A stretch of DNA of 64,000 bases. It comes from Candidatus Solincola quzhuomuensis. GTDB taxonomy: Bacteria > Actinomycetota > Geothermincolia > Geothermincolales > RBG-13-55-18. The notes under the pieces were generated by a model that made no database searches, was not told where the DNA came from, and saw only the letters and a program-made list of their open reading frames with translations. This document shows, piece after piece, positions 38,338-53,837 of the stretch. The position numbers were made by a program, and so were the translations under genes. Where the stretch lies: positions 6,164 to 70,163 of the forward strand of contig JACVJF010000001.1 in NCBI GenBank assembly GCA_015711855.1, written 5' to 3'. Within the stretch, counting starts at the first letter, position 1. Every line of letters starts with the position of its first letter.

Positions 38338-38468
38338 ATTCCCTTCTCCCCTCGCCGCATCGCCAAGATCCGACCCCGAGAAAAACCAGCAACGCCCTCC
38401 GAAGCCCCTCATAACCGCACATCCCGGGGCCCTATATCGTCCTCACCACCTTAGCGAGGCGAGCCCGA

Positions 38469-38735
38469 TCATTTCTCCGACCCCTCGTCCTTCGTCAAGG
38501 CTCCGGCGGGACACAGGGCGGCGCATCGCGCGCATCGATCACATTCTTCCTTAAAAGCAGCGACGGCCCCCCAGCCTGGGAAAGTGAGGATTATCCGGCT
38601 AGCGGAAGGGCCGCATTCCCCTTCGTGGAGGAGCGAGCACACCATCTGGCATGTGCGGCATCCGGTGCACCTTTCGGGATGATGAATCAAAGCATTCCTC
38701 CCATGATATCTACGTCCGATGTCGACATTGTACAT
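38469..38735 (-). CDS. 4Fe-4S dicluster ferredoxin
   Basis: 'CTGCRTCQMVC' and 'CDRCARCAALCP' motifs; directly upstream of AOR paralogue. Confidence 0.8.
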   Translation of the reverse strand: MYNVDIGRRYHGRNALIHHPERCTGCRTCQMVCSLLHEGECGPSASRIILTFPGWGAVAAFKEECDRCARCAALCPAGALTKDEGSEK

Positions 38736-39654
38736 TCTTCGCCTACCTTGGTCATCTTAGGACGAGCAAGCTCAAGGAATGCGTTCGGTTTTGCCGAAAA
38801 CCTTCTATTTCAATCCATCGCCCAAAGGGGTGGTTGTCCATGGCCGGGTCGGGAAACAAAATGCGCCGTTCAACGCTCGCGGTTTCGCTATGGTTCTCAT
38901 CCTAATCCTGTCGATCGTCGCTTACTTTCTCTTGGACATCATTTTTTAACCAATCGCCGTATCTCCGACAACAAGAAGAAGGCCGTCCAGGAATCGACCC
39001 GCACCCTCGATGGCACAAGAAACATGTTAGTCTTAAGCGAGTTCAACCCCTCCTACCTCAAGGTCTTCAACCAGGAACTTGTCCGGCGGGTCTTGGGGAG
39101 GCGACCTGGACTGCCTTTACGACTTCGCGATACAGGTGGCTCTTCTCTTATATCCCGTGGAATACGCAAGCATCATAAAAGACGGGCGGGTAATGACCTA
39201 TGGCGCTCGTGCGGGATGGAACGTAGATCCCTCCCGAATGCCGACAACGCCGCCCGAGGAAGGATACCTGGTACTGAACAGGCTGGGGGGACGGGAAGGC
39301 TTTTTTATCTCCATTTACAACCCGGTAGACCTGAGTGTACTCGGGCTGTAGGCAAGGGGCATTGTGCGTGGTCAGCCCCATCGAAAGACTCAACCGCCAG
39401 GCCTAGATGATCGTGGAGGGCACCTTCGAGGGCGAGGCGGAAGTGGAAGAGGGCAGCGCTTTCGCCGCCCTGCAGGGGCTTCTCCGCAGCGGCCAGAGGG
39501 TGCTGCGCGGTCTCGACGAACGCTTCAAAGAAGAAAGGGGGTTTTACGACGGAAAAGAATAAAGTTTCCTGGGTCGATCAACGATATATTTTATGAATTA
39601 GCCGCCCGCAGGTGCGCTCGGTCCGCCGAGAGGAGAGAGTGGAAGGAGGAATAA

Positions 39655-39888
39655 TTGGCCAATAAGCTGGCTCAGGAAATAGAGAAGATTCTCTCCGAGG
39701 CGGTGGGCGAGTTCATCGCCAAGGCCACGGTAAAGAAGAACTGCGAGCTTATCGGCTGCACTCCGGAGACCCTTACCGCTGCTCACCTTCCCGAGCTGGC
39801 GGAGAAGATCGACAAATCGGTCTCCTTCTTCTCCGGAAAAGAGGTGGGGAGTTCCCTAGCGGAGAAGATAAGAGCTTTAAAGGTGTGA
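39655..39888 (+). CDS. hypothetical small protein (77 aa)
   Basis: TTG start with AGGAGG 8 nt upstream; coding-like. Confidence 0.4.
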   Translation: MANKLAQEIEKILSEAVGEFIAKATVKKNCELIGCTPETLTAAHLPELAEKIDKSVSFFSGKEVGSSLAEKIRALKV

Positions 39889-40211
39889 GCTTGAGGAGCA
39901 GGCCCGGGGGATTTGCCCCCGGGCCTCATACACGGCAACGGCCTCGCGGGAAGATAAATCATTATAACCGCAAGGGTTGGGAAGCATCTCCTTCAAGCCC
40001 GGGAAAACCAAGTACAAAGCTTCAGGCAACGGGGGAAATCCGTGAACGAACCTTATCTTCCTGGGTTTTCCCGCGCCCTATACCACCCTTTAAGGCGAAA
40101 GATCATCGACGTCGGATCCCGAAGAGGGAACGGGTCAAAGCTTTCCTCACCATTTGCGCTTCTCCCTGATGGGTGACCGGGTTGATGGCCGCTGTGGATG
40201 TTGGGTTTCCG

Positions 40212-40820
40212 CTAGACCGCCAAACCCAGGGATTCCATGACCTCTTCCAACCTCTCCCGTTTTCCCCTCCACCTGTCCTCCCGGTAGAGGGCCGGGCAAT
40301 CCCGGAGGCGATGTTTCTCCTGCAGCAGGAGCAGGGCGAAGGCCAGACAGCTCTGCTCCCCGCACTCCCGGCAGTTGGTCTGGGGGAGAAGTCCGTAGAT
40401 GTCCAGGGGTTTTATCTTTATCTTCCCCTCGTAGACCGGCTTTATCTCCTTTCGGTGTTCATGGACGTAGTTCAATCGCTCCGCCAGCCAGGCCAATACC
40501 TCTTCGGCGTCGGCCACGTCGTCGGCCTTGGCTATGGTCACTCTGCGGGGGTACACCGTGACCAGCCGCGGACCCTTGGTGAAGGTGAGAGCGGGACGGT
40601 CGGCGGCATAGGTTGCCATCCCTGGCTTCCCCTCCGTTTGCCCGTCCTCTTGTCCCACTGCGGCGCCACCCTGCCCCACATAGGTGGCGTTGGCCAGAAC
40701 GGCGTTCAGATAAGGCAAAAGATCGCTCACATCCACCGGGATACGGGCAATGAGCCTTATCTTGGTCTCGTCGGCGAAGCAGGGTTCCACCTGTTCTATC
40801 TCTATCCTCTCGATGAGCAT
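40212..40820 (-). CDS. uncharacterised Fe-S protein with C-terminal PF04060-like (CFeSP AcsC/CdhE N-terminal-type) 4-Cys domain
   Basis: 'LPQTNCRECGEQSCLAFALL...DCPAL'; N-domain 'LLPYLNAV'; paralogue of 50704..51228; SD 'GAAGGGAGGAG'. Confidence 0.6.
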   Translation of the reverse strand: MLIERIEIEQVEPCFADETKIRLIARIPVDVSDLLPYLNAVLANATYVGQGGAAVGQEDGQTEGKPGMATYAADRPALTFTKGPRLVTVYPRRVTIAKADDVADAEEVLAWLAERLNYVHEHRKEIKPVYEGKIKIKPLDIYGLLPQTNCRECGEQSCLAFALLLLQEKHRLRDCPALYREDRWRGKRERLEEVMESLGLAV

Positions 40821-41122
40821 TCTCCTCCCTTCAAAATCGCCCGAGCCGCTTTCGCCCCGGCCGATATGCCCCATCCCTGCGCTTTAGCCCCCTAAACTCG
40901 GCCATACTTGTCCGCGCGGGTTTGGCCATCGGCGCTTCCTCCGCAGGAGGACATCGGCCCACATGTCCGCAAGCCTGGTTTCTTTGCGCTAAAAGCCTCA
41001 CCGGGGACCGCATCGAGAAGCGCCCGTTTTAACTCCCAGCTCGCGGAGAGAAAGCCCAGGGCGCTCCACAATCCGGAATCGCCCGCGTCGTTAAAGCGGA
41101 CTCCTCATTCCCGCACAGATCC

Positions 41123-42223
41123 TCAGAGGACCCCTTTCGCTTTCCTGACCGACCACCCCCTCGCGGCGAGGACGTCCTCGGCTTGCGATAAAACTCCCCG
41201 GATCTCTCCCTCAGCGCCTTCCAGTATCAGGAAATTTCCCCCGCACATATCCCCCCGCCTCCAGAGGACCTCCGGAAGCGGAAGAAAGGCCTCTCCCAAT
41301 ACCAGGCGCAGGACGGCCAAGACCGCTCGGACCTTCCTTCTTTCTCTTTCTTCGGCGGGTATGTCCCCGGAAAAGAGGGGGAGGAGATTCCCGCTTCCCA
41401 CCGGCCCCGGCCGATTATCCCGCAAGAACATCGCCTCGTCCACCAGCTCCTCGGGGTCCATGCGGTAAAGGTCCTCCCGCCGCAGCAATATCTGGCGGAC
41501 GCCGTAATCCCTCACCAACTCACCGGGCCGTGGAGGCAGTCTTTCGGCGTGGATCACAGTCACGACGCTTTTCCCCAACGCCTCCCTGAACTCCTCGGGG
41601 CTCCAGGGTAGTTCACCGCGATCCCCAAGGGAAAGAATGAGGTAGACCAGGCCCAGAGAGACCATCTGCCCGGAAATCTCTCTTAAGCGCCTCAGATCCC
41701 CCCTCCCGCCTGGCCTTTTGGCCATCAACTCCGAATCATCTATCAGTCCTTCTCCGGATAGGTCCAGGACCAGGGCGGGAACCACCTCCCGACCCGCCAG
41801 CGCTTCGGTCAGGGTTTCCGCGGCGCGACAAAGAACCTCTTCCTGCTCCTCCATTCCCAAGAGATACACGATGTCCTCGCGTTCCAGCGGTTCATTTGTG
41901 GATAGTTTTTCCATAACTGCGGCGAGCCTGGGGTGATCCGCAAACTCTGAAGCAAGTTTTCCCGAAAGCCCCTCGTCGGCCCTTGCGCCCACCTGCTCCG
42001 GGTAAAGTACCGCCTTGACCAAAACCGCATGTCCTTCCAGCAGGTCCACCGCTTTCCCGCCCTCCGAGACGGGCAAAGCTATGGCCGTGGTGCACAGCTC
42101 CCCGGCCTGCGGAGGAGCGGGCACCAGCCTTGCACGGAAACCCCTCTCCTTGAGTAGAGCCTCGGCGCGCAGCATGTGGTGGGTGGATGGAAAGACGAGG
42201 ACGGCTTCGCTTCTAAGGGCCAC
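41123..42223 (-). CDS. hypothetical protein with N-terminal DUF3343-like domain
   Basis: 'AVLVFPSTHHMLRAEALLKERGFRARLVPAPPQ' resembles DUF3343 (putative S/Se carrier); remainder unrecognised, no radical-SAM Cys triad. Confidence 0.5.
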   Translation of the reverse strand: MALRSEAVLVFPSTHHMLRAEALLKERGFRARLVPAPPQAGELCTTAIALPVSEGGKAVDLLEGHAVLVKAVLYPEQVGARADEGLSGKLASEFADHPRLAAVMEKLSTNEPLEREDIVYLLGMEEQEEVLCRAAETLTEALAGREVVPALVLDLSGEGLIDDSELMAKRPGGRGDLRRLREISGQMVSLGLVYLILSLGDRGELPWSPEEFREALGKSVVTVIHAERLPPRPGELVRDYGVRQILLRREDLYRMDPEELVDEAMFLRDNRPGPVGSGNLLPLFSGDIPAEERERRKVRAVLAVLRLVLGEAFLPLPEVLWRRGDMCGGNFLILEGAEGEIRGVLSQAEDVLAARGWSVRKAKGVL

Positions 42224-42226
42224 AAC

Positions 42227-42616
42227 TTATTCTCCCCGCAACACTTCTCCCGTCTCCAGAGTATATTTCACGTCCTCCAGATCGGGTACCCTCCCATAGG
42301 CTACCAGCTTGCCGTCCACGGCAACTGCCGGGAGCACGTAACGCAGGGAGAAGGCCACCCGGGAGGCGAAGTCCTCCTCCCCTATATCGCGCAGGTAAGC
42401 GGCGAGTTTTTTTAGCCCCTCGGCATAGCCCCGGTCGTCGCTCATTGCGTACCGGACAATCTCTGCCGAGGGAAACCTCTCTTCCACCTCGGACATCAAT
42501 ACCTCCAGCCGGGACAGCTTCTCGGCGTCCCTCAAGGATACCGGCCCGGAACAGGTACACGCCGGTGCGGGTATGAAGAATTCCACCTGGTGATCCCTTT
42601 CAGCCATACTTGCCAA
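42227..42616 (-). CDS. ArsD-like thioredoxin-fold arsenic metallochaperone (tentative)
   Basis: N-terminal 'FFIPAPACTCSG' vs ArsD 'FDPAMCCSTGVCG'; '...LPAVAVDGKLVAYGRVP' resembles ArsD C-region; 4 nt from ACR3 operon partners. Confidence 0.4.
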   Translation of the reverse strand: MASMAERDHQVEFFIPAPACTCSGPVSLRDAEKLSRLEVLMSEVEERFPSAEIVRYAMSDDRGYAEGLKKLAAYLRDIGEEDFASRVAFSLRYVLPAVAVDGKLVAYGRVPDLEDVKYTLETGEVLRGE

Positions 42617-42757
42617 CCGAGTCCTGTCTAGCCTTGGTATGCGGACTGATCAAAGGGCCGGTGCGCTCATAGTCTTTCGATTTCTTCCCGTTATTGACGC
42701 CATAAGAGCACTATTAGTCCCTTATCGAGTCGTCGAGGTTCGGCTTGCGAAACAAGC

Positions 42758-43927
42758 TCACACATCATTTGCCGAACCTCCGTTGGCGGCTACGGCGGCC
42801 GGTACTTCCTCGGGACGGAACCAGTGCTGGGTGCGTAAGCATATCTTAACCAAAAGAAGCATCACCGGCACCTCGATGAGCACCCCCACCACCGTGGCCA
42901 GGGCGGCTCCCGAGGCGATGCCGTAGAGCACGGTGGCCGTGGCGATGGCCACCTCAAAGTGGTTGGAGGCTCCGATCATGGCCGAAGGAGCTGCGTCTCG
43001 ATAATTGAGCCTTATCAGTTTGGCCAATCCGTACCCTATCCAGAATATGAGGTTGGTCTGGATGAACAAGGGTATGGCTATATAGAGGATGGACATGGGC
43101 TGGTCGATGATCAGCTGACCCTTCAGGCTGAAGAGGATGATCAAAGTCACCAGCAGGGCGATGATGGTGATGGGCGTGAGATAGTGGATGAACTTTTCCT
43201 GAAACCAATCCATGCCCTTGCGCTTCAGTATCCATTTCCTGGAAAAATATCCGGCTATCAGGGGGAGGGCCACGTATATGCCCACGGAGAGCACGATGGT
43301 CAGCCAAGGAACGGGCATGCTGTTGACGCCCAGGAGCCATCCGCCGAGGGGAGCGTAAAGGAAGAGCATGGTCAGGGAGTTGATGGCCACCATGACCAGG
43401 GTGTGGCCGTCGTTCCCCTTGGCCAGATAACCCCATACCAGAACCATAGCCGTGCAGGGGGCGATGCCCAAAAGGATGCACCCCGATATATAGGAACGGT
43501 AGAGCTCCGGCCTCAGTACCCCGTCCACCATGATACCCCCGGTGGTGGGTACATAGTGGGTACCGAGATCCGCGCCGGGAATCCATCTCTTGAAGACGAA
43601 GCCCAAAAAGAAGGTGGCGATGGCCACCATGGTGAAGGGCTTTATGCACCAGTTCACGAAGAGGGTGAGAAGCACCGGCTTGGGCGTTTTGCCCGCCTTA
43701 ATGACCTCGGCGAAGTCGATCTTGACCATGATGGGATACATCATGAAGAAGAGGCATATGGCGATAGGGATGGACACTTGGGCCACGGATATCTTGTCCA
43801 AGGCCTCTCCCATGCCCGGGAAAGCTTTGCCCAGCAGGATGCCTATACCGATGCACACCAAAACCCAGACAGTCAGATATTTCTCGAAAAAGCCCAATCT
43901 ACGCGCCACCTTAGGCTGCTCTACCAA
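42758..43927 (-). CDS. acr3: ACR3 family arsenite efflux transporter
   Basis: 10-TM protein with ACR3 hallmarks '[19 protein letters not shown]', '[12 protein letters not shown]'. Confidence 0.85.
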
Positions 43928-44399
43928 TTTTCTCCTCCTTCATTTACGTCTTACGCCGGTTATCTGGAACCGTTCGCCGCGAGTGCCCGCCCGGCAGAGA
44001 CAACATGCCTCTCACTATCAGCCGCATTCCCGACATTCGCGTCGAGAGGGCCGGCCGGCATTCTCCGTTCTCTTAAAACCGCCAACATCGCTCTCTTCCC
44101 TGAGTCCCCGATGCAAACTATTCCGGGTCGTTCGCGAAACCCGGATCAAACGGAACCCTCCCCATAACGGAACCCCCTCACGCCACGTTTTTCAGATGTC
44201 TTCTCCGTGCCTAAGAATTCGAGAAAAGGCCGTTTCGACCTCTCCGCTGACGACGGAGCCGCCGAATAATGGGATGAGGTCCTTCCCCCTAACGACCGGA
44301 GGCCTTTCGGCAACGAGAAACGGGTTTGTCTAGCGAAATCAGCGCCCATAGGATCGACCTTCCTGTGAGAACAACAGGTTACCGAACCCATATAGTACT

Positions 44400-44514
44400 C
44401 CCGTCGTGCCTATTTGGGGCGGCTGATCATAATTAACTATCTATTGACCAAACTAAATTTATCGATATATTAATTATTAAAGAAAATCGATGTCGAGGTC
44501 CATAGTCCACTACC
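44400..44514. promoter_or_regulatory. AT-rich divergent promoter/operator region between acr3 operon and arsR
   Basis: 'atcgatatattaattattaaagaaaatcgat': two ATCGAT palindromes flanking AT-rich core immediately upstream of arsR ATG. Confidence 0.35.
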
Positions 44515-44889
44515 ATGGCTATGAAAGCAAGAGAGTGCAGCGCATCAGAAACACATACCTCATCGGCTTACGAAGAAGCTTGTCCCGCCAAAGGGCGACT
44601 ATTTCTTCCCGAGGTCGACGAGGAAGCATTGAGAAAAACGGCGAAGCTGCACAAGGTCCTCTCGGATGAAACGCGGCTGAAGATACTCCTTTTTCTGCGG
44701 GAGGGTGAACTCTGCGTCTGCGATATCGTCGACGCCCTGGGTAAGCCGCAATCCACCGTTTCGCACCATCTCTTCCTCTTGCAGAATTCAGGCCTCATAA
44801 AAGCCAGAAAAAAGGGGCGCTGGAACATGTATTCCCTAAGCGATACGGCGAGGGCTCTCGGCGACTACTTCCTGAAAATCGGCTTGTAA
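44515..44889 (+). CDS. arsR: ArsR/SmtB family metalloregulator
   Basis: wHTH with 'ELCVCDI' metal-binding motif; divergent from acr3 operon. Confidence 0.85.
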   Translation: MAMKARECSASETHTSSAYEEACPAKGRLFLPEVDEEALRKTAKLHKVLSDETRLKILLFLREGELCVCDIVDALGKPQSTVSHHLFLLQNSGLIKARKKGRWNMYSLSDTARALGDYFLKIGL

Positions 44890-44954
44890 AGCCTGCCGGA
44901 CCGTAAAACGTTATACGAAGCGCACTATAACATCGGACTACGAGGCCCGGCGCA

Positions 44955-45830
44955 TCAAGGCCTTGCTCTCAGCACTAGGACCGGGATCTCGCTGTGGTTG
45001 ACCACGCTCTCCGCCACTCCGCCCAGCAATTTTTCAGGCAAGCGGCGATGTCCAAGCGCTCCCAACACGATGAGCGAGGCACCGATCTCCTTCGCCACCC
45101 TCAGGATGGTCGAGACGGGACCGCCTTCCTCCAGGCGGGTTTGTACGTTGCCGCAATGTGCCCCCAGGCAAGAGGCGAGCTCGCGCAGTTTCTCCATCCC
45201 GTGCTCCGCCTTTTCCTACTCCATTAATGTCTTCATGGCGCCCACATACGCGTCCTCGTCACGCTGCACATGCAAAAGAGTTATATCCTCGCAACAGGAC
45301 GAGGCCATCTCCTCCAATAGAGGCCGGAGGCTCTCCGCGTAGGCGGAGAAGTCGGTAGCCACAAGCACCTTCTCGAAGAGGAGGTCGCATACGGCCTCGC
45401 ACTCATACCCCTCATCCTTTTCGTGGATCCTACACTTATGCACCAACACCGGGCGGTCGGCCAACCGGAGCACCTTACCGCTGACGCTCCCGGTGAGGAC
45501 CCGCTCAAAGAACCCCGCGCCGTGTCCGCCGAGGTAGATCAAGGAAACATCCTCTTCAGCCGCCACGCGGAGGATCTCCCTGGCAGGCGAGCCCGGCTCT
45601 ATCCTTCGGACAACCTCCAAGCCTTCGATGTCCGGCAGGCGGCCGATCCTTTCGAGTTCCCGGCGGGCATAGGCCTCCATCAAATCCTTGGCCATTTCGG
45701 CGTGCCTGGCATCGACGGCATAGAGCAGGATCAACTCCTTCATCCCCGCCCTAACCAGTTCGCCCACACAGCCCAGAAGCCTCTCGGTGTACGGCGAGAA
45801 ATCCACGCCTAAGAGCACCTTTTCGAACAT
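44955..45830 (-). pseudogene. tandem universal stress protein (UspA x2) interrupted by in-frame TAG
   Basis: USP domain 1 intact; domain 2 runs 'ITLLHVQRDEDAYVGAMKTLME-TAG-EKAEHGMEKLRELA...IPVLVLRARP' in one frame; TAG at ~45216-45218; SD 'AAAGGAGGGG' at start. Confidence 0.6.
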
Positions 45831-46075
45831 GACCCCTCCTTTGATACAACAAGGTTGTTCCGACGAATGCAGGTGGCGGGCTACGCATAAACAGCATCTG
45901 TTCAAAACTTCATCATCGCATCGCCGCCCTTCGTCACGGGTCCGCACCTGCGTCGCTTTCCGCTTGCCGTCTCGGCAGGAAAAGATCCTATATATCGCCC
46001 TACAGCCTTGCGATGACGGACGTTTCTTGAAACGCTCGTTTCCGGCGCGGTCTTCACTCATTCGTTTGGAGGCGA

Positions 46076-46807
46076 TCATCCCTCCTTCCGCTCCAGCAGT
46101 GCCTTATACACGTTCTTGCCCCTCACGCGGGGCATGGCCTTTTCCCGCAGGGATTTAAGAGAATCGAGGATATCGTCAAGGTATCTCGCCGGGAAACCGA
46201 GCACGCATTCCCCCTCCGTCAGATCGGTGGCCTCGCGACAACCGTAGCAGCCTATGGACATATTCAGGCGCTGCTGCACGAAGGGGGTGATGGTCACGTC
46301 CACGCATGTGGCCTGAAGAACTGCGGTGTCGAAATGCAACCTTCCCCCGGTCTTGAACACGTGGGCCAATGCGATCCACATCAGGTGCTCGGCCATGGAC
46401 TCGACCACCACCACGTCCGGCTCCTCCTCCGCCTCCCCCAAAGGGCATAAGGACACCATCTTGTACCTGCCCATCTCCAGGCGTTGCATGGTGGAGAAGG
46501 TGTGCTTCACCGCCTCCTGGTTGCCAAAAATCCCCATCGCCGTCGGCATCTCCCCACTTATGAGGCGAGGCGGTGGATCGGCGAATCCCAGGGCCCACGC
46601 GGCAGCCGGGCAGGATATGTTCTCGGGGGTCAGCAGCACGTGCCTGCCCCTCCTCGCCTCCATGAGCACCTGACAGTAGCGCCGCTTGTCCGGTAGGTCG
46701 CACCCCGACAGAGGGGCTAATTCCTCGTGGAACTTCACCGCCACCGGACTGGTGGTCATGCCCAATATCTCCTCTATCTGGGAGGCTTTAATCGAAAAGT
46801 CGGACAT
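46076..46807 (-). CDS. DUF169 family protein
   Basis: 'ISCPAAAWALGF' and 'GCYGCREATD' DUF169 hallmarks. Confidence 0.6.
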   Translation of the reverse strand: MSDFSIKASQIEEILGMTTSPVAVKFHEELAPLSGCDLPDKRRYCQVLMEARRGRHVLLTPENISCPAAAWALGFADPPPRLISGEMPTAMGIFGNQEAVKHTFSTMQRLEMGRYKMVSLCPLGEAEEEPDVVVVESMAEHLMWIALAHVFKTGGRLHFDTAVLQATCVDVTITPFVQQRLNMSIGCYGCREATDLTEGECVLGFPARYLDDILDSLKSLREKAMPRVRGKNVYKALLERKEG

Positions 46808-46950
46808 TTTCTACCTCCTGCTTTTGTGCCATCGGAAAACATAGGTCATCACGCCGGCCTCCAAAACTGCCCGGCATGCCTCTCTCAAGGTCATACCGCT
46901 CCCAGGAACGAGGCTATATCCGCATTGGGCCTTTCCCTGCGGACGTCATG

Positions 46951-47534
46951 TCACGTCTGGGCCTCGCCAGGGGTTTCGTCCGGCGCCTCGTAACCTTCTT
47001 TGAAAAAGACCCTCTCGATGACCTCACTCAAGATGACCACCACCAGGGTAGCCAAGTAACGAGCGAGCATGAACTTCCAACCCAGAAACTGCAGCTCCAT
47101 CAACTCGGCGGGGATTTTTATGCACGCCCAAGCCGAAAGGAAGATGATCATATTCTCCACCTTGGCGCCCTTCCTCAGCAGCATCGACGTCAGCGGGAAG
47201 GCCACTTAGAGCGGGCCCATGGGTATACTCCCCAGGATGAAGGAAAGGATGACCCCCTTGACCCCGGATTCCTCACCCAGAAACCGGACGATGAACTCCC
47301 TTTCCACTCATACGCTTACCAGGCCCATGAGGATAAACACCGCGGGAAGGATCACGGCCATCTCCTGAAATATTCCCAAGCAACGTGTCGGGCTTGAGCG
47401 CCTTTCTCAGGAAGCGTGATGACCATGACCAGGAAAAGGGGTGCGATGAGGAAGAGGGTGGCATAATCCCATCGTATTCGCTTCCGAAGGCTCTCCTTTT
47501 TCCCCTCGGCCCCGATGTCGTCGTTTTTCCTCAT
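46951..47534 (-). pseudogene. DUF318/ArsP-like permease half-domain, disrupted by multiple frameshifts/stops
   Basis: four short frame-shifted pieces each resembling the N-half of the intact permease at 49227..50285. Confidence 0.45.
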
Positions 47535-47977
47535 CCTACGATCACCCCCACCACCACCGCGATGGCCACGGCGGCGACGAAGCTCAAAGCGTTTCTGGCG
47601 ATGGCGAACTTCTTTCCCAGCTCCTTGATCTCCAGGGGCAGGAACACGAAACCGACCATGGTCAGGGTGGTGATGAAGGCCGCGGTGGCCATGTAGCCGG
47701 CTCCCATGTCCAGCAAGGACCTGGCCAAGGGGAAGGCGATGATGACCGGAATGAAGAGCACCGCTCCTAAAAACGAGGCGATAGCCACCCCCTGCGCGCC
47801 GCTGTTCTTTCCGATCGCCTGCGCGATTACCTTGGGCGGGACGAAACCCACTATCAGGCCCACCACCAGGATGATGGCCAGGACACTGGGCAGAAACCTT
47901 ACAAAGCCTTTATAGGCCACGCGAAGCGCAGCTGCCGTCTTCCTCTGATCCTTGACCACACTCAGCAGCAGCAGCAC
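47531..47977 (-). CDS. DUF318/ArsP-like permease, C-terminal-half homologue (148 aa)
   Basis: aligns with C-half of 49227..50285 ('GNAIASVSGALMYFATL...' vs 'GAQGVAIASFLGAVLFIP...'). Confidence 0.5.
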   Translation of the reverse strand: MLLLLSVVKDQRKTAAALRVAYKGFVRFLPSVLAIILVVGLIVGFVPPKVIAQAIGKNSGAQGVAIASFLGAVLFIPVIIAFPLARSLLDMGAGYMATAAFITTLTMVGFVFLPLEIKELGKKFAIARNALSFVAAVAIAVVVGVIVG

Positions 47978-48058
47978 GCCGGTCAGCGCAGCGCGAGAAT
48001 GACGATGGTGGTTATGTCCATGCCGCTCCCTTCTTCCTCTTCCCTTGGGGCATTCTCA

Positions 48059-48412
48059 TCACAGCGCGTCCTCCAAGAAATTGACGCAGGCGTCCTCGGG
48101 AGCGAAGAGGTTGGCGGCCACTTCCACGGCTTTGAGGGTCGCCGCAGGCACGATGCAGGAGTTGCGGCAGCAGTGCTCCGAGGCCGCGCGGTATACCGCC
48201 GTGTCCCGCATGGGCAGGGTCATCTCGCTACCGGGGTTGACCTCCTTGAGCTCCTCCGCCAGCTCCGCGATATGCTCGCAGGAGGTCTCGAACTGCAAGG
48301 ACACGATTGTCTGGCTGCTCTTCCTGGCCGTGATCACCGTCTCCTTGCCGCACTGCCCTCCTTTGACAAACACTATGGCCATGCATTCCCTCCCCCGATC
48401 CCACCCGGACAC
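48059..48412 (-). CDS. DsrE/DsrF-like sulfur-relay family protein (tentative)
   Basis: size and pattern 'AIVFVKGG...CEHIAEL...ACVNFLED' reminiscent of DsrE/YchN fold. Confidence 0.35.
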   Translation of the reverse strand: MSGWDRGRECMAIVFVKGGQCGKETVITARKSSQTIVSLQFETSCEHIAELAEELKEVNPGSEMTLPMRDTAVYRAASEHCCRNSCIVPAATLKAVEVAANLFAPEDACVNFLEDAL

Positions 48413-48593
48413 TTATGGAAACGGGCTTCATCCTGCAACCCGGGTCACCCCGCTCATGACCCATGGTGCCCGAACTCCCTTCCCCTTTGTTGCCACACGA
48501 GTTTCTATCCCCCGGGTTTCGGCGCTTGCGGCTTGCACTTCTTGCGGGTTGAGGATCGCCGCTCTTAGGCCGGCGTTTTTAAAACAACGGTCT

Positions 48594-48977
48594 TTAACCC
48601 TTCGTCGCCAAGGCCTCCTCGATGCGTCGCTTGACTTCCGCCTTGATCCTCTCCTTCTCCTCTTCGTCATAGGCGAGCACAGGGGCCTTCTTCACCCCGA
48701 AATCCTCGACCATCTCCACCCGTAGGTCGGGCTTGCGGCCGGAGTGCTCCTCCACGATCTTGGAGCAGCACATAACCGGGCAGCCCTCGATGATCACGAA
48801 TAATTCCGCACCGGCTATTTTGTTGAGGCCCGTGTCCTTGTCGATGGCCACCGCGGGCAGGCATACCAGGTGGTAATCCTCGTTCTCCTTCACCAGCTCC
48901 GTGGCCACCGCCCCTGCCAGCTGTCCGGTGTTGGCGGCTCCGTAACATGTAGCGATAACAACCTTGAGCTCGGCCAT
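48594..48977 (-). CDS. DGC-domain protein (putative Zn/Fe-binding)
   Basis: 'VVIATCYGAANTGQLAG...YHLVCLPAVAID...FVIIEGCPVMCCSKI' matches DGC domain layout; SD 'AGAAGGAGGAAA'. Confidence 0.55.
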   Translation of the reverse strand: MAELKVVIATCYGAANTGQLAGAVATELVKENEDYHLVCLPAVAIDKDTGLNKIAGAELFVIIEGCPVMCCSKIVEEHSGRKPDLRVEMVEDFGVKKAPVLAYDEEEKERIKAEVKRRIEEALATKG

Positions 48978-49226
48978 TTTCCTCCTTCTGTTCCTTCGAT
49001 GCACGCATACAGCTGCTTTGCCTGCCTTCAAGCCGGTTCCAGAGCCATCCTTCGCCGTTTGCGTTTCGGCTCATAGGTATTACGGCACATCATCCGAACC
49101 GGATCGTACCCGCTGGGACCGCAAACGCTTGCGTACGATGACTCCGAGAAATACTGGCGCTGCCTTCCGCGATTTGTGGATACTTATGTCTTACGCCACA
49201 AACACTTTCTCCTCCGCTCAGCGTCA

Positions 49227-50285
49227 TCAAGCGAACATCCCGAACACGAACCCGGTGCCCATGGCGAAGAGACACACCAGGGCGATGTAGGTCAAGGCTT
49301 TCTTAGGGCCTAAAATCCTGATAAGCACTATCATGCTGGGCAGGGATAGCGCCGGACCGGCCAGCATGAGGGCCAGTGCCGGCCCCTTGCCCATTCCCAA
49401 GTCCAACAAACCGCGCACTATGGGCACCTCGGTGAGGGTGGCGAAATACATGAGGGCGCCGGAGACGGAGGCGATGGCGTTTCCCCCTATGGTGTTGCCT
49501 CCCACGTACCTGGAGATCACCTCGGGCGGGATTAGCTCCTTTATCACGCCGACCAAGAAGACCCCTAAAAGCAGCACAGGGAGGATCATCTTCACCATGC
49601 GCCAGGTCTCAAGGAACCAGGTCTTTATCTCCTCCCTGGTGAACCACCTCTTCACCAGGTAGATGAGTAAAGCCACGAGCAGCACTTCCCCTCCGTACTT
49701 GTAGATGTTGGCCATCTTGGCCGTGCCGTAGACCAGGATGGCGATGAGCACCCCGAAGTAGGCCAGGTTCTGGCGGCCTGGTCGTACCCGACTCCCGTCG
49801 TCGTAGGCGAAAACTCCGGCGGCCTCCGCCTCGAGCATCCGTTGCTCCTCTTCCTTGTGAAAGATGCCGGCCATGATCAGGCCGATGACGAAGGCGAATC
49901 CCACCGCTCCGATGATGCGGGCCACCCCCAGGTCGTACCCCAAGAGGTGGATGGAATAGGTCATGGCCAGGATGTTTATGGCCGGCGAGGAATAGAGGAA
50001 GGCCACCGCCGGCCCCAGCCCGGCCCCCTTCTCCCTTATCCCCGTGAAGAGGGGAAGCACGGTGCAGGAGCACACGGCCAGAATCGCCCCGGAAACCGAG
50101 GCCACGGAATATGCCAGGACCTTGTTGGTACGCGGACCGAAATACTTCATCACCGCCGCCGTGTTCAGGAAGGCGGCTATGGCCCCGGCGATGAAAAAGG
50201 CGGGGACCAAACAGAAGAGAGTATGCTGGGCCACGTATTCGTAGAGGGTCTTGAGGCCCTCCAACATCAACCCGCCGAAAGTCAT
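49227..50285 (-). CDS. arsP: DUF318 permease, ArsP-like (organoarsenical efflux permease family)
   Basis: two homologous 4-TM halves, 'AVCSCTVLP' resembling ArsP 'TPFCSCS' motif. Confidence 0.65.
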   Translation of the reverse strand: MTFGGLMLEGLKTLYEYVAQHTLFCLVPAFFIAGAIAAFLNTAAVMKYFGPRTNKVLAYSVASVSGAILAVCSCTVLPLFTGIREKGAGLGPAVAFLYSSPAINILAMTYSIHLLGYDLGVARIIGAVGFAFVIGLIMAGIFHKEEEQRMLEAEAAGVFAYDDGSRVRPGRQNLAYFGVLIAILVYGTAKMANIYKYGGEVLLVALLIYLVKRWFTREEIKTWFLETWRMVKMILPVLLLGVFLVGVIKELIPPEVISRYVGGNTIGGNAIASVSGALMYFATLTEVPIVRGLLDLGMGKGPALALMLAGPALSLPSMIVLIRILGPKKALTYIALVCLFAMGTGFVFGMFA

Positions 50286-50322
50286 GGGTTATCGCTTCCT
50301 TTCCTGGAATTGTTAAAAGCTC

Positions 50323-50565
50323 TCAAGACTCGAACCAGCTCCTTATCTCTTTCTTCGAAGGAACCTTCCCCTTGGAGACCACCTTTCCGTCGATCACCAC
50401 CCCCGGGGTGACGAGGACGTTGTACTTCATAATCTCCGACATGTCGGTCACTTCCTCCACCTCGGCCTCCAGGCCAAGCTCGGAAACCACCTCCTTGATG
50501 GCCTCCTTGGTGGCGATGCACTTCTTGCATCCGGGTCCCAGTACCTTGATCTCCATCTGACTCAC
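50323..50565 (-). CDS. thioredoxin-fold redox-active disulfide protein
   Basis: 'KVLGPGCKKCIAT' CxxC, 80 aa; typical partner of DUF318 permeases. Confidence 0.75.
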   Translation of the reverse strand: MSQMEIKVLGPGCKKCIATKEAIKEVVSELGLEAEVEEVTDMSEIMKYNVLVTPGVVIDGKVVSKGKVPSKKEIRSWFES

Positions 50566-50703
50566 CTCCGTTCAACTATATTCCTTTCCCCGTCATCGAA
50601 GGTCTTTCGTTCCGCCTGTAATGGGCGCACGACCGATATACACTTCCCCCGCGACATCCAGGGCTTCCAAGCCGACCGAACACGTTCCGTGCGACCCAAC
50701 GAC

Positions 50704-51228
50704 TCAGAGCCCCAGCTCCCTCAACTTTTCCAAATTCTCCTCCATGCCCGCCTCCAGAAGGGGAGGGCAATCCTCCACGCATCTCTCCCCTTCTACCAGC
50801 TGTGCAGCGAAGGCCATGCAGGAAGGCACTCCGCACTTCCCGCAGTTGGTGCGGGGAAGATAACGCAAAATGTCCAGGAGCTTGGGGGGAACCCGCGTGG
50901 TGTGGTCGGGCTCTATCTCCGCCCGTCGCTCCCAGATATCGTTTAACCGCTGCACGACCTTCCTGGCCGTTCTCTCGGCGTGGCCGCGGTCCTTGAGGTT
51001 GTTGATGCTGATCACGTTCTCGCGCAACGCGTACTTGTGAGCGCCTTCCCTCCAGACGATGGTCGGGACCTTGGAATCGTAGAAGGCGTTTTTCACTACG
51101 GCGTTGACGTAGGGCATGAGAGGTCCCAGATCGGCGTCCGTCTTCAACCGAGCCACCCAGATGGGCGACCCCGGGTCGCAGGGCGGCGAGAACATCTCCA
51201 ACTCGTAATGGTTTATGAACATGGACAT
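50704..51228 (-). CDS. uncharacterised Fe-S protein with C-terminal PF04060-like 4-Cys domain (paralogue 2)
   Basis: 'LPRTNCGKCGVPSCMAFAAQLVEGERCVEDCPPL'; N-domain 'LMPYVNAV'; paralogue of 40212..40820. Confidence 0.6.
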   Translation of the reverse strand: MSMFINHYELEMFSPPCDPGSPIWVARLKTDADLGPLMPYVNAVVKNAFYDSKVPTIVWREGAHKYALRENVISINNLKDRGHAERTARKVVQRLNDIWERRAEIEPDHTTRVPPKLLDILRYLPRTNCGKCGVPSCMAFAAQLVEGERCVEDCPPLLEAGMEENLEKLRELGL

Positions 51229-51266
51229 CCTTCTCCACTCCTAAAGCATCTGCTTGCGCTGCCGGC

Positions 51267-51485
51267 TCACCCCTCGCTCTTGCTCTTCCCGGTCACTATC
51301 TCTCCCTGGTTTGGTCGGTACGACTCCTCGAAGACCGGCACGCAGTGCGGAAGATCGGCCTCTTTGACCTTTTTCTCCAACACCTCCCGGATGAACTTCA
51401 AGGCTTCCTCGCGGTCGTCGTCGGCCAGGATGCGCTTTATCCAGATGAGCTCCTCCTCGCCGAGGGACACGGCTATCTTCTTCAT
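51267..51485 (-). CDS. small conserved hypothetical protein (72 aa), 'EELIWLKRI' family copy 1
   Basis: ATG overlaps stop of upstream arsR by 4 nt; paralogue of 53198..53398. Confidence 0.5.
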   Translation of the reverse strand: MKKIAVSLGEEELIWIKRILADDDREEALKFIREVLEKKVKEADLPHCVPVFEESYRPNQGEIVTGKSKSEG

Positions 51486-51895
51486 CCTCTTTTCCCTCCT
51501 CGCCCGTTCGCTTCGCTCCCCCGCTTCGCTCGTGCCGTTGGCGCCGGCGTGCAACACGCCGCATCCGGCCCTTCGCCAGGTTGGCCCCGATTGCCGAGGT
51601 AACGCAGAAATAATTCGGTGAGATTCCCGAGTCTCGCTTCCGCTACCGAATAATACGAGGACGTCCTCTCCTTCCTCGCTCTAAGAAAACCGGACTCTTT
51701 GAGCACGCTGAGGTGGTGTGAGGCCAATTGCTGCGAGATGCCGAGCTCCCTTTCCACCTCGCACACACAATGCTCTCCCCTGAGCAGCAGGCAGATTATG
51801 CGCAGACGGTTGGGGTCGGACAGGACCTTCAGTCCCTCCGCGAGTTCCACTATTCCTGGGTCCACAACGCACTTCAGAGTTTGCCCTTCGGCCAT
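51482..51895 (-). CDS. arsR: ArsR/SmtB family metalloregulator (second copy)
   Basis: 'RLRIICLLLRGEHCVCEVERELGISQQLASHHLSVLKESGF'; C-terminal tail with Cys pair. Confidence 0.8.
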   Translation of the reverse strand: MAEGQTLKCVVDPGIVELAEGLKVLSDPNRLRIICLLLRGEHCVCEVERELGISQQLASHHLSVLKESGFLRARKERTSSYYSVAEARLGNLTELFLRYLGNRGQPGEGPDAACCTPAPTARAKRGSEANGRGGKRG

Positions 51896-52329
51896 CTCTC
51901 CGACCTTTCACCAATTATTATTTGTACTAATTGCAATTTGTATTTTAACTAACCACGGCTCCTTGTCAATGACCAATACCATCATTGGAGGAGCGCCCCA
52001 TTTTTTCCTATCCGGATTGCCACCTCTTTGTCGGCCGGTTTGTCACGTTGCGTTACTGCCTGCCTTAGTCAAGACTCAAGACGCCGACCCCGTGATCCAG
52101 AGAAAGAGACAGCATCGAGACGCTTTCTGTGCCGGCTTCGTCCTCCATGCCTTGAGGTGGCGAGAAGCCCAGCGACACCGTTTACACGTTTAAGAAAGGC
52201 TCGGGCCTGGCTAGACCTCGCGGCGACACAACAACGGGAGTTGGGACAACCCAAAAAACCCGGCAACCGTACACTCCTGTTTGAATCCTGCGAAGGATAT
52301 GGTCGAGGGTTGCACGACATCACCCCAAA

Positions 52330-52430
52330 TTGGACCAACGTTGATCCCGCCGAAAAAAAACAATTGACATGATATGATTTTTTATAAAAATTATAAAAAT
52401 TCTTAATTCTTGCCAAATATTATCTCAGCA
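52330..52430. promoter_or_regulatory. AT-rich promoter-like island (TTGACA ... TATAAAAAT x2)
   Basis: 'caattgacatgatatgattttttataaaaattataaaaatt', GC far below window average, upstream of roadblock-like gene. Confidence 0.3.
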
Positions 52431-52488
52431 TAGGTTTCTTTGTCGATGGTAAAGCGAGAGGGAGGACGAAATGTAGGTTAGCGAGGAA

Positions 52489-52860: not shown

Positions 52861-53197
52861 AGCCGGTAGAAGGTTGAGTGCGCGAAGAGCCGCTTCAGAG
52901 GGAGATGGCCATTCGTATTTTTTTCTCCAGACCCTGGTGACTTTGTGACGACACATAATCCGGATAGCGCGCTGTGGCTTTTCCGGACTCGGTGTGCTAT
53001 GCTCCGTGCGCACATCGCCCCCCATTTTCGGCCAACAAGGGATGGGTGGAACAGGATCTATAAGGGCGGCGAAAATGCCCCTTCGTTTCGTCCGGCGGTT
53101 TATGGTTTTGAAATAAATCGAGGATGCTTTGCGCAACTTTTAGGATGCGCATGTTATCTTAGTAAAAGACCGCTCGAGCGGAGACCGGAGGTCCGGC

Positions 53198-53398: not shown

Positions 53399-53435
53399 TT
53401 TAAGGCATGGAGGGCGAGGGAGCGAGGGAGGACGC

Positions 53436-53837
53436 ATGGGCGGGAAGAAAGTTCTTTTCGTATGCGGCGAGAACGCCGCGCGTAGCCAGATGGCCGAGGC
53501 CTTCTTCAACAGCTTGGCCCGGAAATGGCGGGCGGAAAGCGCGGGAACCTTCCCGGCGGAAAAGGTGAACCCTTTGGCCGTGCAGGCCATGCAGGAGACC
53601 GGCCTGGACATTTCCTCCGCCACCCCCAAAGTCCTCGACCTGGGGCGTCTGGGCGATTTCGACCGCATCATCTCCTTCGGCTGCATCGCCAAAGCCGCCT
53701 TCCCCGCGCGGGACCGCCTGGAGGAATGGGCCCTTCCGGACCCCGGCAAGGGTGACATGGAGCTCATGCGAAGCGTAAGGGATGAGATAAGGAGGCTTGT
53801 CGGTTCCTTGGTCAAGGAGCTTGAGGGCGGCGACTGA
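53436..53837 (+). CDS. arsC: arsenate reductase, LMW-PTP family (thioredoxin-coupled)
   Basis: 'KVLFVCGENAARSQMAEAFF' CX5R P-loop plus downstream Cys. Confidence 0.85.
   Translation: MGGKKVLFVCGENAARSQMAEAFFNSLARKWRAESAGTFPAEKVNPLAVQAMQETGLDISSATPKVLDLGRLGDFDRIISFGCIAKAAFPARDRLEEWALPDPGKGDMELMRSVRDEIRRLVGSLVKELEGGD

Follow-up and report, generated by a model that had tools for sequence, protein, structure and literature searches.

Arsenic resistance in strict anaerobes is, to our knowledge, understood mostly by analogy with aerobes, and we know of no settled source of reductant in anaerobes for ArsC, ArsM and ArsE-type proteins, and of no established enzyme for the reduction of methylarsenate. 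Small soluble accessory proteins that depend on cysteine are familiar from ArsR-regulated operons, where ArsD and ArsTX (thioredoxin reductase/thioredoxin) are encoded beside an efflux pump or ArsC. ArsD has a thioredoxin-like fold and a Cys12-Cys13-Cys18 As(III) site and is paired with ArsA, LMWP-type ArsC is thioredoxin-dependent, and ferredoxin:thioredoxin reductase (FTR) carries a redox-active Cys pair next to its cluster, in CPC and CHC motifs. ArsR-linked hgcAB uses one half of the corrinoid/Fe-S protein (CFeSP), the other half being the one with the [4Fe-4S] domain. In Pseudodesulfovibrio mercurii ND132, an ArsR-ArsP-ArsE-DGC operon is arsenic-induced (bioRxiv 10.1101/2022.10.17.512643). 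Here, a family of small proteins is described in which a TBP-like N-domain is followed by a [4Fe-4S] domain (the FeS family), and whose gene sits, in several phyla, between arsR, arsP/arsE, DGC, ACR3 and arsC. It is a candidate, and a testable one, either for the missing redox link or for a sensor of arsenic/redox state based on Fe-S. A full-text literature search retrieved no paper on this family, and the assertion of the first-pass annotation that such an Fe-S protein has no described role in arsenic resistance agrees with that search. The family is widespread and, in the literature searched, unstudied.

Two members are encoded in the window, the whole 64,000-nucleotide stretch of Candidatus Solincola quzhuomuensis DNA that was analysed (Table 1). 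Both open reading frames are present on the minus strand as annotated, and the paralogy claimed for their products is borne out by BLASTP, which aligns them end to end at 31% identity (E 3e-23). The motifs quoted for them were also recovered, namely PYLNAV, IKPVYEG and TNCRECGEQSCLAFA...DCP in copy 1, and PYVNAV, VPPKLLD and TNCGKCGVPSCMAFA...DCP in copy 2. The two copies are members of one two-domain family and fall into different deep clades, and the N-domain of copy 1 has a lineage-specific, Gly/Gln-rich loop insertion. For copy 1, the ATG at 40820 is the preferred start and is preceded by a GGAGG ribosome-binding site; the NCBI call (P0088) is a longer, 100% identical ORF of 220 aa that extends to 40874. 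A plus-strand ORF overlapping copy 1 (40173-40895) was taken as spurious.

Table 1 Features of the two ars modules in the window (positions are those of the window).
Feature	Position	Strand	Remarks
FeS paralogue 1 (copy 1), 202 aa	40212..40820	-	TBP-like N-domain, then PF04060 [4Fe-4S] domain
Copy 1 N-domain, TBP-like, residues ~1-134	40419..40820	-	Fold by homology to copy 2 model
Copy 1 PF04060 domain	40293..40388	-	CX2CX4CX16C
366-aa DUF3343 + BioB/HydE-like radical-SAM barrel protein, directly upstream of copy 1	41123..42223	-	Without CX3CX2C
129-aa 'EFFIPAPxCxCSG' CxC protein	42227..42616	-	Weak thioredoxin-fold/ArsD-related similarity
ACR3 arsenite efflux permease, first gene of copy 1 operon	42758..43927	-	TIGR00832, 402 bits (cut-off 283)
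ArsR1, divergent from ACR3...FeS1 operon	44515..44889	+	PF01022
DGC-domain four-Cys protein	48594..49031	-	PF08859
ArsP-family permease	49227..50285	-	PF03773, 267 bits
ArsE-type Trx_3 thioredoxin-like protein, directly downstream of copy 2	50323..50565	-	CxxC; PF13192, 107.8 bits; TIGR00412 'MTH895/ArsE family'
FeS paralogue 2 (copy 2), 174 aa	50704..51228	-	TBP-like N-domain, then PF04060 [4Fe-4S] domain
Copy 2 PF04060 domain	50761..50859	-	Cys129/132/137/154
Copy 2 N-domain, single TBP-like repeat, residues 1-112	50893..51228	-	
72-aa conserved small protein, between arsR2 and copy 2	51267..51485	-	
ArsR2, first gene of copy 2 operon	51482..51895	-	PF01022
ArsC, LMWP-type arsenate reductase	53436..53837	+	PF01451; thioredoxin-coupled class

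The C-terminal four-Cys domain had been proposed to be of the PF04060 type, and the corresponding HMM indeed matches both copies, at 42.7 bits for copy 1 (residues 145-176) and 54.0 bits for copy 2, with a gathering cut-off of 23 bits. Both have the Cys spacing CX2CX4CX16C, as does the CFeSP large subunit in its [4Fe-4S] domain. Across 52 aligned sequences, Cys129/132/137/154 do not vary; they are ~100% conserved over 146 representative clusters and align to the CFeSP ligand region in profile comparison. In the CFeSP large subunit, the family profile matched the N-terminal [4Fe-4S] domain (4djd_C residues 3-51, E 1.4e-14; further CFeSP matches, 2h9a_A and 4c1n_A), and RnfB was a weaker match. 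The Foldseek superposition of the predicted C-domain and CFeSP spans ~50 residues at 2.1-2.6 A, the identity being 37-39%. These similarities suggest that the C-domain binds a [4Fe-4S] cluster, which would be oxygen-sensitive and of low potential.

The label 'CFeSP-like' is apt for the ~45-residue cluster domain but not for the rest of the protein, which has no TIM barrel or corrinoid domain. The NCBIfam AcsC/CdhE model NF003195, with a cut-off of 306 bits, gives 59-60 bits and is matched at positions 2-57 of 450 only. The Cys spacing and a presumably low-potential [4Fe-4S] cluster are shared with CFeSP, whereas the cluster domain, N-terminal in CFeSP, is C-terminal in the FeS family, where it follows the TBP-like domain and is the sole CFeSP-like part. 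The CFeSP small subunit has no counterpart in the family, and the membrane anchor and extra ferredoxin domains of RnfB are also lacking. CODH/ACS, small-subunit and methyltransferase genes are not among the neighbours in the window and related loci, which are ars genes. In a CFeSP-like role, the cluster would reductively activate a corrinoid methyl carrier in arsenic methylation or demethylation. We regard this as extremely improbable: the protein has no corrinoid-binding domain, none is annotated among the neighbours examined, and the cluster domain also occurs in RnfB and other non-corrinoid proteins, although CFeSP is the top match of the C-domain in both sequence and structure, an ArsM-like methyltransferase gene adjoins the family member at one locus (L086), and ArsR-linked hgcAB draws on the other half of CFeSP.

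The N-domain, which the first-pass annotation had noticed in both copies and left anonymous, is common to both and can be identified as one TBP-like repeat in which a Cys is nearly invariant. In the predicted structure of copy 2, it has the strand-helix-four strands-helix order of the TBP repeat fold, and the conserved Cys is placed in the loop that joins strands 1 and 2. This residue (Cys14 in copy 1, codon 40779-40781; Cys17 in copy 2, codon 51178-51180) is invariant in the family alignment of 52 sequences and is kept in 135 of 145 representative clusters; besides Cys17 and the four cluster Cys, PYLNA and P107 are invariant in the alignment. Pfam gave no match to PF00352 (TBP) for either copy, and the profile search against the PDB gave only a weak one, 2z8u (E 0.013-0.016), in which the N-domain aligns in register to both TBP repeats. 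Identity with TBP proper, which needs two tandem repeats and a basic DNA-binding saddle, was rejected, as the family has one repeat, which is acidic (median pI 5.5) and bears, in addition, a further N-terminal strand and the Cys loop. Unlike TBP, the family is found mostly in Bacteria and is fused to an Fe-S domain, and its N-domain bears no sign of DNA binding. A survey of the TBP-domain superfamily describes no architecture of TBP-like and Fe-S domains (Brindefalk et al. 2013, PMC3597702). Thermococcales have proteins of ~95 aa that consist of a single TBP domain (PMC3597702).

The two-domain family is discrete. A search with the N-domain profile yielded 825 clusters (at 50% identity), nearly all with PF04060 after the N-domain and a length of 165-195 aa or 255-285 aa, and the family is present in at least 591 species genomes. 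All the carriers listed belong to lineages that we take to be anaerobic, and Desulfosarcina cetonica, Desulfamplus magnetovallimortis, Eubacterium callanderi and Acetoanaerobium noterae are carriers in culture. Tandem paralogues occur in some genomes, and the one match in a plasmid collection is in truth a mislabelled 2.6-Mb replicon without annotation. DUF3343 is fused to the FeS protein in P0106, and a divergent DUF3343-like N-extension is found in 93 further proteins (hhalign 96.8%, E 2e-10), its carrier Cys being lost in the ~268-aa class. This extension is seen in 18 of 146 representative clusters, and a regulator fusion in one. P0246, a distant family member, combines a MarR wHTH, a TBP-like and an FeS domain in a single chain.

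Such a chain is what might be expected if the family consisted of sensors or co-regulators. The [4Fe-4S] cluster and/or the conserved Cys would then sense As(III), redox state or cluster damage, and the TBP-like domain would convey this to ArsR-type repressors or to the machinery of transcription, much as WhiB-like Fe-S proteins do in trans. This reading, which we consider unlikely but credible, is consistent with the fold of the N-domain, to which a transcription factor comes nearest, and with the presence of PF04060 among the regulatory (sensory) domains of Clostridiales sigma-54 activators (PMC6615313). The FeS gene also follows arsR in the window (copy 2, with the 72-aa gene between) and in 5 of 81 genes sampled. 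The JGI name of the family, 'ArsR family metal-binding transcriptional regulator', points the same way, but it is a label and not a test; ArsR/SmtB identity was rejected, since neither copy has an HTH match (PF01022/PF12840) and the true ArsR neighbours match strongly. However, the family itself has no HTH, its N-domain is acidic, unlike DNA-binding TBP, the regulator fusion is far rarer than the DUF3343-like extension, and operon position is variable, with ACR3, DGC, Trx_3 or ArsC adjoining more often than arsR.

Each copy lies in an ars module of its own that is linked to ArsR, as had been claimed: ArsR genes adjoin and ars clusters surround both. Both are on the same strand in an operon-like cluster with an As transporter and ArsR, as is expected of an accessory component. 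In the copy 1 module, the order is ACR3, the small CxC protein, the DUF3343/pseudo-radical-SAM protein and the FeS protein, and promoter-like sites and an AT-rich palindrome (44456-44471) lie by ArsR1 (44444-44502). No Rfam family matched within 38400-54500, a span that takes in the 300-nt gap upstream of copy 1. The DUF3343 part of the 366-aa protein is Se/S-carrier-like with an invariant Cys44; the protein was rejected as a radical-SAM enzyme, the fold being present and the cluster motif absent. The 129-aa protein was likewise rejected as ArsD, its matches being sub-threshold (VcpD E 3e-4, MTH895 E 0.77) and its Trx_3 similarity weak. A homologue of it is encoded at the corresponding place in L081, L082, L086 and L087, and the 119-aa gene of the Omnitrophica locus L083 proved unrelated. 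With the window's DUF3343 and 129-aa proteins as queries, no matches were obtained in the 80 loci sampled; the copy 1-type module is therefore specific to the copy 1 clade.

In the copy 2 module, the start of the 72-aa gene overlaps the stop of arsR2 (ATGA), a palindrome lies near ArsR2 (51925-51942), and a gene of the same size and position as the 72-aa gene is called in L081. The module has the same backbone, found also in Desulfobacterota loci, as the ND132 operon, in which no FeS family member is reported (bioRxiv 10.1101/2022.10.17.512643), whereas many relatives have the FeS gene inserted after DGC or after arsR. Both window modules recur in related MAGs (L081, L086, L093), as ArsR-72aa-FeS-Trx_3-ArsP-DGC and ArsR/ACR3-119aa-DUF3343-FeS(-ArsC), in which stop codons overlap the start codons that follow. 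The ArsC proteins annotated in the islands of the window, L083, L086 and L093 are all of the LMWP type (PF01451).

To place these modules in the family, 81 family genes in 80 species loci were compared. Co-occurrence with transporters had been named as a check by the first-pass annotation: 30 of 81 genes have ACR3, ArsP or ArsC within 2.5 kb, against 7 of 80 loci (about 9%) at a control distance of 4.5-7.5 kb, the ArsC search being seeded on the LMWP (PF01451) type alone. This corresponds to ~37% of species-level loci, rising to ~54% for any ars-island marker. Thioredoxin-fold genes lie within 2.5 kb of 28 of 81 genes, versus 8 of 80 loci at the control distance, although arsE-arsP pairs belong to ars islands independently, which confounds this figure in part. 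The same-strand neighbours within 300 nt include ACR3 (12), DGC (10), Trx_3 (9), ArsC (6) and thioredoxin (5), and in L086 ArsC overlaps the stop codon of the FeS gene. Clades 5, 11 and 12 show a strong ars association, whereas it is largely missing in clades 1-4 and 13, which are mostly Chloroflexota/Anaerolineae. Several clades adjoin cysteine desulfurase, VKOR/thioredoxin or unrelated genes, Pyr_redox genes are also among the neighbours, and about half of the loci have no recognisable thiol or ars context. Thus the FeS family as a whole is not ars-specific. Ubiquity outside ars contexts, which had been held to speak against an ars role, is seen in part for the family and does not extend to the two clades in which the window's copies fall. 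The recurrence in arsenic-resistance clusters suggests that those clusters have a redox component so far uncharacterised.

The frequency of ACR3, the commonest immediate downstream neighbour (12 of 81), would also be expected of an arsenic metallochaperone whose Cys bind As(III)/MAs(III) instead of an Fe-S cluster and hand it to ACR3/ArsP, as ArsD does to ArsA. The five conserved Cys and the faint ArsD-related similarity of the 129-aa partner are consistent with such a role, which we nevertheless judge very unlikely, as the four C-terminal Cys match a domain with a crystallographic [4Fe-4S] cluster in CFeSP and Rnf, the FeS proteins have no similarity to ArsD, and the family is also found in many loci without As transporters. 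ArsD identity was rejected, there being no ArsD family match and no ArsA annotated in the ars clusters of the window and related loci; the partners of the FeS family are ACR3, ArsP, ArsE and DUF3343, not ArsA. Nor is there homology to ArsTX, from which, as from ArsD, the family differs in its predicted Fe-S cofactor and in its restriction to lineages that are presumably anaerobic.

Other neighbours point to sulfur. Cysteine desulfurase-like genes are directly adjacent in 5 lineages; class-V aminotransferase genes adjoin the FeS gene in L007, L011, L054, L062 (Eubacterium callanderi) and L094 (Acetoanaerobium noterae) and are found nowhere else in these loci. In Omnitrophica ars islands, SufC-SufBD lies directly upstream of the FeS gene, and DUF3343 'Se/S carrier-like' domains are fused or adjacent to family members. 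The family could accordingly serve in sulfur, selenium or Fe-S trafficking, the conserved Cys taking persulfide from a cysteine desulfurase or DUF3343 carrier and the cluster reducing the persulfide to release sulfide, or being itself transferable. In ars islands, this would allow repair of As-damaged Fe-S proteins or supply sulfide for thio-arsenic species; putative thioarsenicals were seen in P. mercurii ND132 grown with arsenic, although its operon has no reported family member (bioRxiv 10.1101/2022.10.17.512643). We consider trafficking rather unlikely, since desulfurase adjacency is a minority context (4 of 80 loci) and the DUF3343-like extension of the ~268-aa class has no carrier Cys. 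In addition, the PF04060 cluster has four Cys ligands, as is typical of stable electron-transfer sites and not of transferable clusters.

Our preferred reading, put forward tentatively from sequence as possible rather than probable, is that the FeS protein is a thiol-redox relay, built on a low-potential [4Fe-4S] cluster and a Cys, for the Cys proteins of ars islands. Electrons from a ferredoxin-type donor would enter through the [4Fe-4S] cluster and be used for thiol/disulfide or persulfide chemistry, both on the conserved Cys of the protein itself and on the small Cys proteins that are always encoded beside it (ArsE/Trx_3, the CxC 129-aa protein, DUF3343, DGC). The relay would keep thiol-dependent arsenic steps reduced, namely the turnover of LMWP-type ArsC and the passing of As(III)-thiol to ACR3/ArsP, the FeS protein acting as a ferredoxin:thioredoxin-reductase-like stand-in for NADPH-thioredoxin reductase. 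It may work as a homo- or heterodimer, which is suggested by the tandem paralogues and the single TBP repeat. Domain identity, the invariant Cys, the ars/thioredoxin-fold context, the conserved modules, the DUF3343 fusions and the sulfur links all favour a relay, as do the uniformly LMWP-type ArsC of these islands and the presumably anaerobic carriers. Like FTR, the FeS protein is a small [4Fe-4S] protein that is proposed to link one-electron donors to the thiol/disulfide chemistry of thioredoxin-fold partners encoded close by, but the analogy is functional only, as the FTR catalytic subunit has no sequence or fold relationship to the family. A relay is disfavoured by the conservation of one Cys beyond the cluster ligands, where FTR-type disulfide reduction uses a pair by the cluster, and by the loci, about half, that are devoid of thiol or ars context. 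The MarR fusion and the sensory use of PF04060 fit a sensor as well as a relay.

In a bolder form, which we hold to be more doubtful than sulfur trafficking, the FeS protein and obligate small Cys partners (ArsE/Trx_3, the CxC 129-aa protein, DUF3343) would make up an anaerobe-specific, ferredoxin-driven thiol reductase that replaces NADPH-thioredoxin reductase in arsenic detoxification, and could also be the long-sought pentavalent (organo)arsenical reductase feeding trivalent substrates to ArsP/ACR3. If this were true, a domain close in structure to the TBP repeat would exist in bacteria, where it would have been recruited for redox or protein interaction.

The ars islands of the window hold further Cys-rich, uncharacterised genes, which encode the DUF3343/pseudo-radical-SAM, DGC, DUF6951, DUF169 and 72-aa proteins.

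Two minus-strand ORFs are present at the positions of the putative paralogous Fe-S proteins (see table). For copy 1 the ATG at 40820 is the most likely start codon, since a GGAGG site ends 5 nt before it, and the resulting 202-aa product has the extent delimited in the first-pass annotation. The paralogy claimed there is borne out, as both proteins can be aligned over their full length with 31% identity (E 3e-23), and so is the expected HMM match: the C-terminal domain of both is a PF04060 member ("Putative Fe-S cluster" in Pfam; 42.7 bits for copy 1 and 54.0 bits for copy 2, cut-off 23), with Cys spacing CX2CX4CX16C. A 52-member family profile matched residues 3–51 of the CFeSP large subunit (4djd_C, E 1.4e-14), further CFeSP large subunits (2h9a, 4c1n, 9fzy) and, more weakly, RnfB, and in Foldseek the predicted C-domain fits onto CFeSP at 2.1–2.6 Å with 37–39% identity. 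The proposed likeness to CFeSP holds for the ~45-residue cluster domain but not for the rest of the protein. The AcsC/CdhE equivalog (NCBIfam) scored 59–60 bits against a cut-off of 306, covering model positions 2–57 of 450, and TIM-barrel and corrinoid domains are absent from both window proteins. No Wood-Ljungdahl genes were found among the annotated neighbours in this region of the window, and a corrinoid-linked role appears highly improbable. Because the resemblance is confined to the cluster domain, CFeSP identity was rejected for the whole protein; RnfB and ArsD identities were also rejected.

The N-domain is matched by no Pfam or NCBIfam model. Its profile alone aligned both repeats of Methanocaldococcus jannaschii TBP in register (E 0.013, not significant), which is suggestive of homology, and predicted structures place it in the TBP-domain superfamily. 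However, it fails the features of TBP proper, and TBP-like DNA binding is argued against because the N-domain is a single acidic repeat (median pI 5.5). Invariant in the 52-sequence alignment are Cys17 (copy 2 numbering), P39, N42 (PYLNA motif), P107 and the cluster motif. Across 146 representative clusters the four ligand Cys are kept in ~100% and the N-domain Cys in 135/145, giving five conserved Cys per protein; Cys17 is modelled in the loop joining the first two strands, where pLDDT is lower. That these proteins act as As(III) chaperones seems improbable.

To assess the extent of this FeS family (TBP-like N-domain plus PF04060), 1.84 billion representatives, clustered at 50% identity, were searched with the N-domain profile. 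We obtained 825 clusters (417 at E<=1e-10), nearly all of 165–195 aa (N-domain, then PF04060) or 255–285 aa. The longer class carries ~90 further N-terminal residues, which form a DUF3343-like domain of divergent sequence (hhalign 96.8%, E 2e-10, with a query built without the true fusion); protein P0106 is an unambiguous DUF3343::FeS fusion. Such fusions provide Rosetta-stone evidence. A scan with one genome per species identified carriers in at least 591 species, the matches listed including Chloroflexota, Desulfobacterota, Actinomycetota, Planctomycetota, Nitrospirota, Acidobacteriota, Bacillota and Archaea. To our knowledge, the carrier lineages are all anaerobic. NCBI names these proteins "(Fe-S)-binding protein" and JGI "ArsR family metal-binding transcriptional regulator"; despite the latter, domain search found no HTH in the window proteins, and ArsR identity was rejected on this ground.

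A literature search found no description of the family, in agreement with the earlier statement that a CFeSP-like Fe-S domain has no described function in As resistance. The architecture is not listed in a 2013 TBP-domain survey (PMC3597702), and a study of the ND132 ArsR-ArsP-ArsE-DGC operon does not mention an FeS-type gene (bioRxiv 10.1101/2022.10.17.512643). A known Fe-S domain here stands in an architecture and a functional setting that have not been described. The family is genuine, widely distributed and open to experimental test, but any function assigned to it is so far inferential.

As first proposed, each copy lies in a different ars locus, and both loci are ArsR-linked. FeS1 is the final gene of a minus-strand cluster (ACR3, 129-aa CxC protein, DUF3343 protein, FeS1), separated from the divergent arsR1 by promoter-like sites and an AT-rich palindrome. 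The 129-aa protein gives only hits below threshold, to Trx_3/MTH895 and to the VcpD family, which is related to ArsD, and a homologue likewise separates ACR3/ArsR from the DUF3343 gene in four other FeS loci (L081, L082, L086, L087). The second minus-strand cluster is ordered ArsR2, 72-aa protein, FeS2, ArsE/Trx_3, ArsP, DGC. Both arsR promoter regions of this 60% G+C sequence contain an AT-rich palindrome, AATTTATCGATATATT in one and TACTAATTGCAATTTGTA in the other, and these are candidate ArsR operators. A stretch of ~0.9 kb between ferredoxin/AFOR genes and a 77-aa ORF lacks a convincing ORF; neither this stretch nor the gap upstream of FeS1 has an Rfam match.

Coordinates of features in and around the two FeS modules (window positions)
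Feature	Position	Strand	Remark
Region without convincing ORF	38736-39654		~0.9 kb
77-aa ORF	39655-39888
Copy 1 ORF, longest form	40212-40874	-	ORF present
Gap upstream of FeS1	40821-41122		300 nt
DUF3343 protein	41123-42223	-	366 aa
CxC protein	42227-42616	-	129 aa; EFFIPAPxCxCSG
ACR3	42758-43927	-	TIGR00832, 402 bits
Palindrome	44456-44471		candidate operator
ArsR1	44515-44889		divergent from ACR3-FeS1 cluster
USP	45216-46079	-	between modules
DUF169	46076-46807	-	between modules
ArsP_1 fragments, two	46951-47205, 47531-47977	-	split or frameshifted permease
DUF6951	48059-48412	-	between modules
DGC	48594-49031	-
ArsP	49227-50285	-
ArsE/Trx_3	50323-50565	-
Copy 2 ORF	50704-51228	-	ORF present
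72-aa protein	51267-51485	-	start overlaps ArsR2 stop
ArsR2	51482-51895	-
Palindrome	51925-51942		candidate operator
66-aa protein	53198-53398	+	just upstream of arsC
LMWP-type ArsC	53436-53837		near copy 2 cluster

The 72-aa protein, whose gene is translationally coupled to arsR2, and the 66-aa protein are paralogues (41% identity, E 8e-13) sharing the motif E-E-L-I-W-[IL]-K-R-I, with no Pfam family. Homologues occur in 11 further FeS loci, and called small genes in L081 and L093 match them in size and position. USP, DUF169, ArsP_1, DUF6951 and DGC form a poorly characterised ars-island accessory set that recurs in Omnitrophica and others (L083, L090).

Both modules were found intact in further Actinomycetota MAGs. 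L081 reads ArsR-72aa-FeS-Trx_3-ArsP-DGC-ArsR-ACR3-119aa-DUF3343::FeS and L093 reads ArsC<73aa<ArsR>FeS>Trx_3>ArsP>ACR3. L086 has ArsR-118aa-DUF3343 protein-FeS-ArsC on one strand, with overlapping stop/start codons, and ACR3-methyltransferase-FeS on the other. Downstream of copy 1, the window shares synteny with L092 (Ca. Solincola sp.), and this places the origin of the window in a Geothermincolia-type actinomycete. Among 80 species loci, arsR-ArsP-Trx_3-(DGC)-FeS-ACR3/ArsC recurs in Desulfobacterota. In large Omnitrophica ars islands (L083-L085, MAGs), which also carry ArsR, ACR3-Usp and ArsC, SufC and SufB/D lie directly upstream of a DUF3343-like::TBP-like::FeS fusion.

Co-occurrence was quantified for 81 full-length FeS genes in the 80 species loci, using the zone at 4.5–7.5 kb in the same loci as control. 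ACR3, ArsP or ArsC lies within 2.5 kb in 30/81 versus 7/80 in the control zone, and any ars-island marker accompanies 44/81. On the same strand within 300 nt we found ACR3 (12), DGC (10), Trx_3 (9), ArsC (6), thioredoxin (5) and arsR (5). This arsR adjacency supports an Fe-S/Cys sensor working with ArsR, as do protein P0246 (313 aa), which joins a MarR-type winged HTH, TBP-like domain and PF04060 in one chain, and the use of PF04060 as sensory domain in sigma-54 activators (PMC6615313). P0246 is the sole regulator fusion among the 146 representative clusters, and we regard a sensor as rather unlikely.

Copies 1 and 2 fall in two separate deep clades. Ubiquity in non-ars contexts, which the first-pass annotation had held would count against the proposal, was seen in part: other clades, chiefly Chloroflexota/Anaerolineae, lie largely outside ars contexts, but the copy 2 clade is ars-linked in 7/7 and the copy 1 clade, which holds the DUF3343-linked genes and fusions, in a majority of members. 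The ars-island association is enriched, not exclusive. In five non-ars loci (L007, L011, L054, L062, L094), including the cultured Clostridia Eubacterium callanderi (L062) and Acetoanaerobium noterae (L094), a class-V aminotransferase (cysteine desulfurase-like) directly adjoins the FeS gene, immediately upstream or downstream. Together with the Suf and DUF3343 links, these neighbours lend support to sulfur, selenium or Fe-S trafficking, an unlikely role in our estimate. Genes for VKOR fusions, a Pyr_redox protein, DsbD and thioredoxins also recur beside FeS genes in the non-ars clades. At some loci the neighbouring genes are unrelated.

FeS genes constantly lie near small Cys proteins, and a thioredoxin-fold gene occurs within 2.5 kb in 28/81 versus 8/80 at 4.5–7.5 kb, although for Trx_3 the signal is confounded, arsE-arsP pairs being ars-island members anyway. 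We tentatively prefer a low-potential [4Fe-4S] relay. Electrons from ferredoxin-type donors would pass to the predicted cluster and on to thiol/disulfide or persulfide chemistry on the protein's own Cys and on ArsE, CxC protein, DUF3343 and DGC partners. In low-potential organisms, this would keep LMWP ArsC, which depends on thioredoxin, supplied and would maintain the hand-off of As-thiol species to ACR3 or ArsP. The relay reading is weakened by this confounding and because just one Cys is conserved besides the cluster ligands.

In ars islands on metagenome contigs (L088, L090/L091), GcvH-like lipoyl carriers and lipoate-protein ligase (LplA) lie by the FeS gene, with DGC::GcvH fusions, a small ferredoxin (Fer4), a CMD/AhpD-like protein and a lipoamide-dehydrogenase-like flavoprotein. 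These lipoyl genes merit attention, as arsenite classically targets dihydrolipoyl dithiols.
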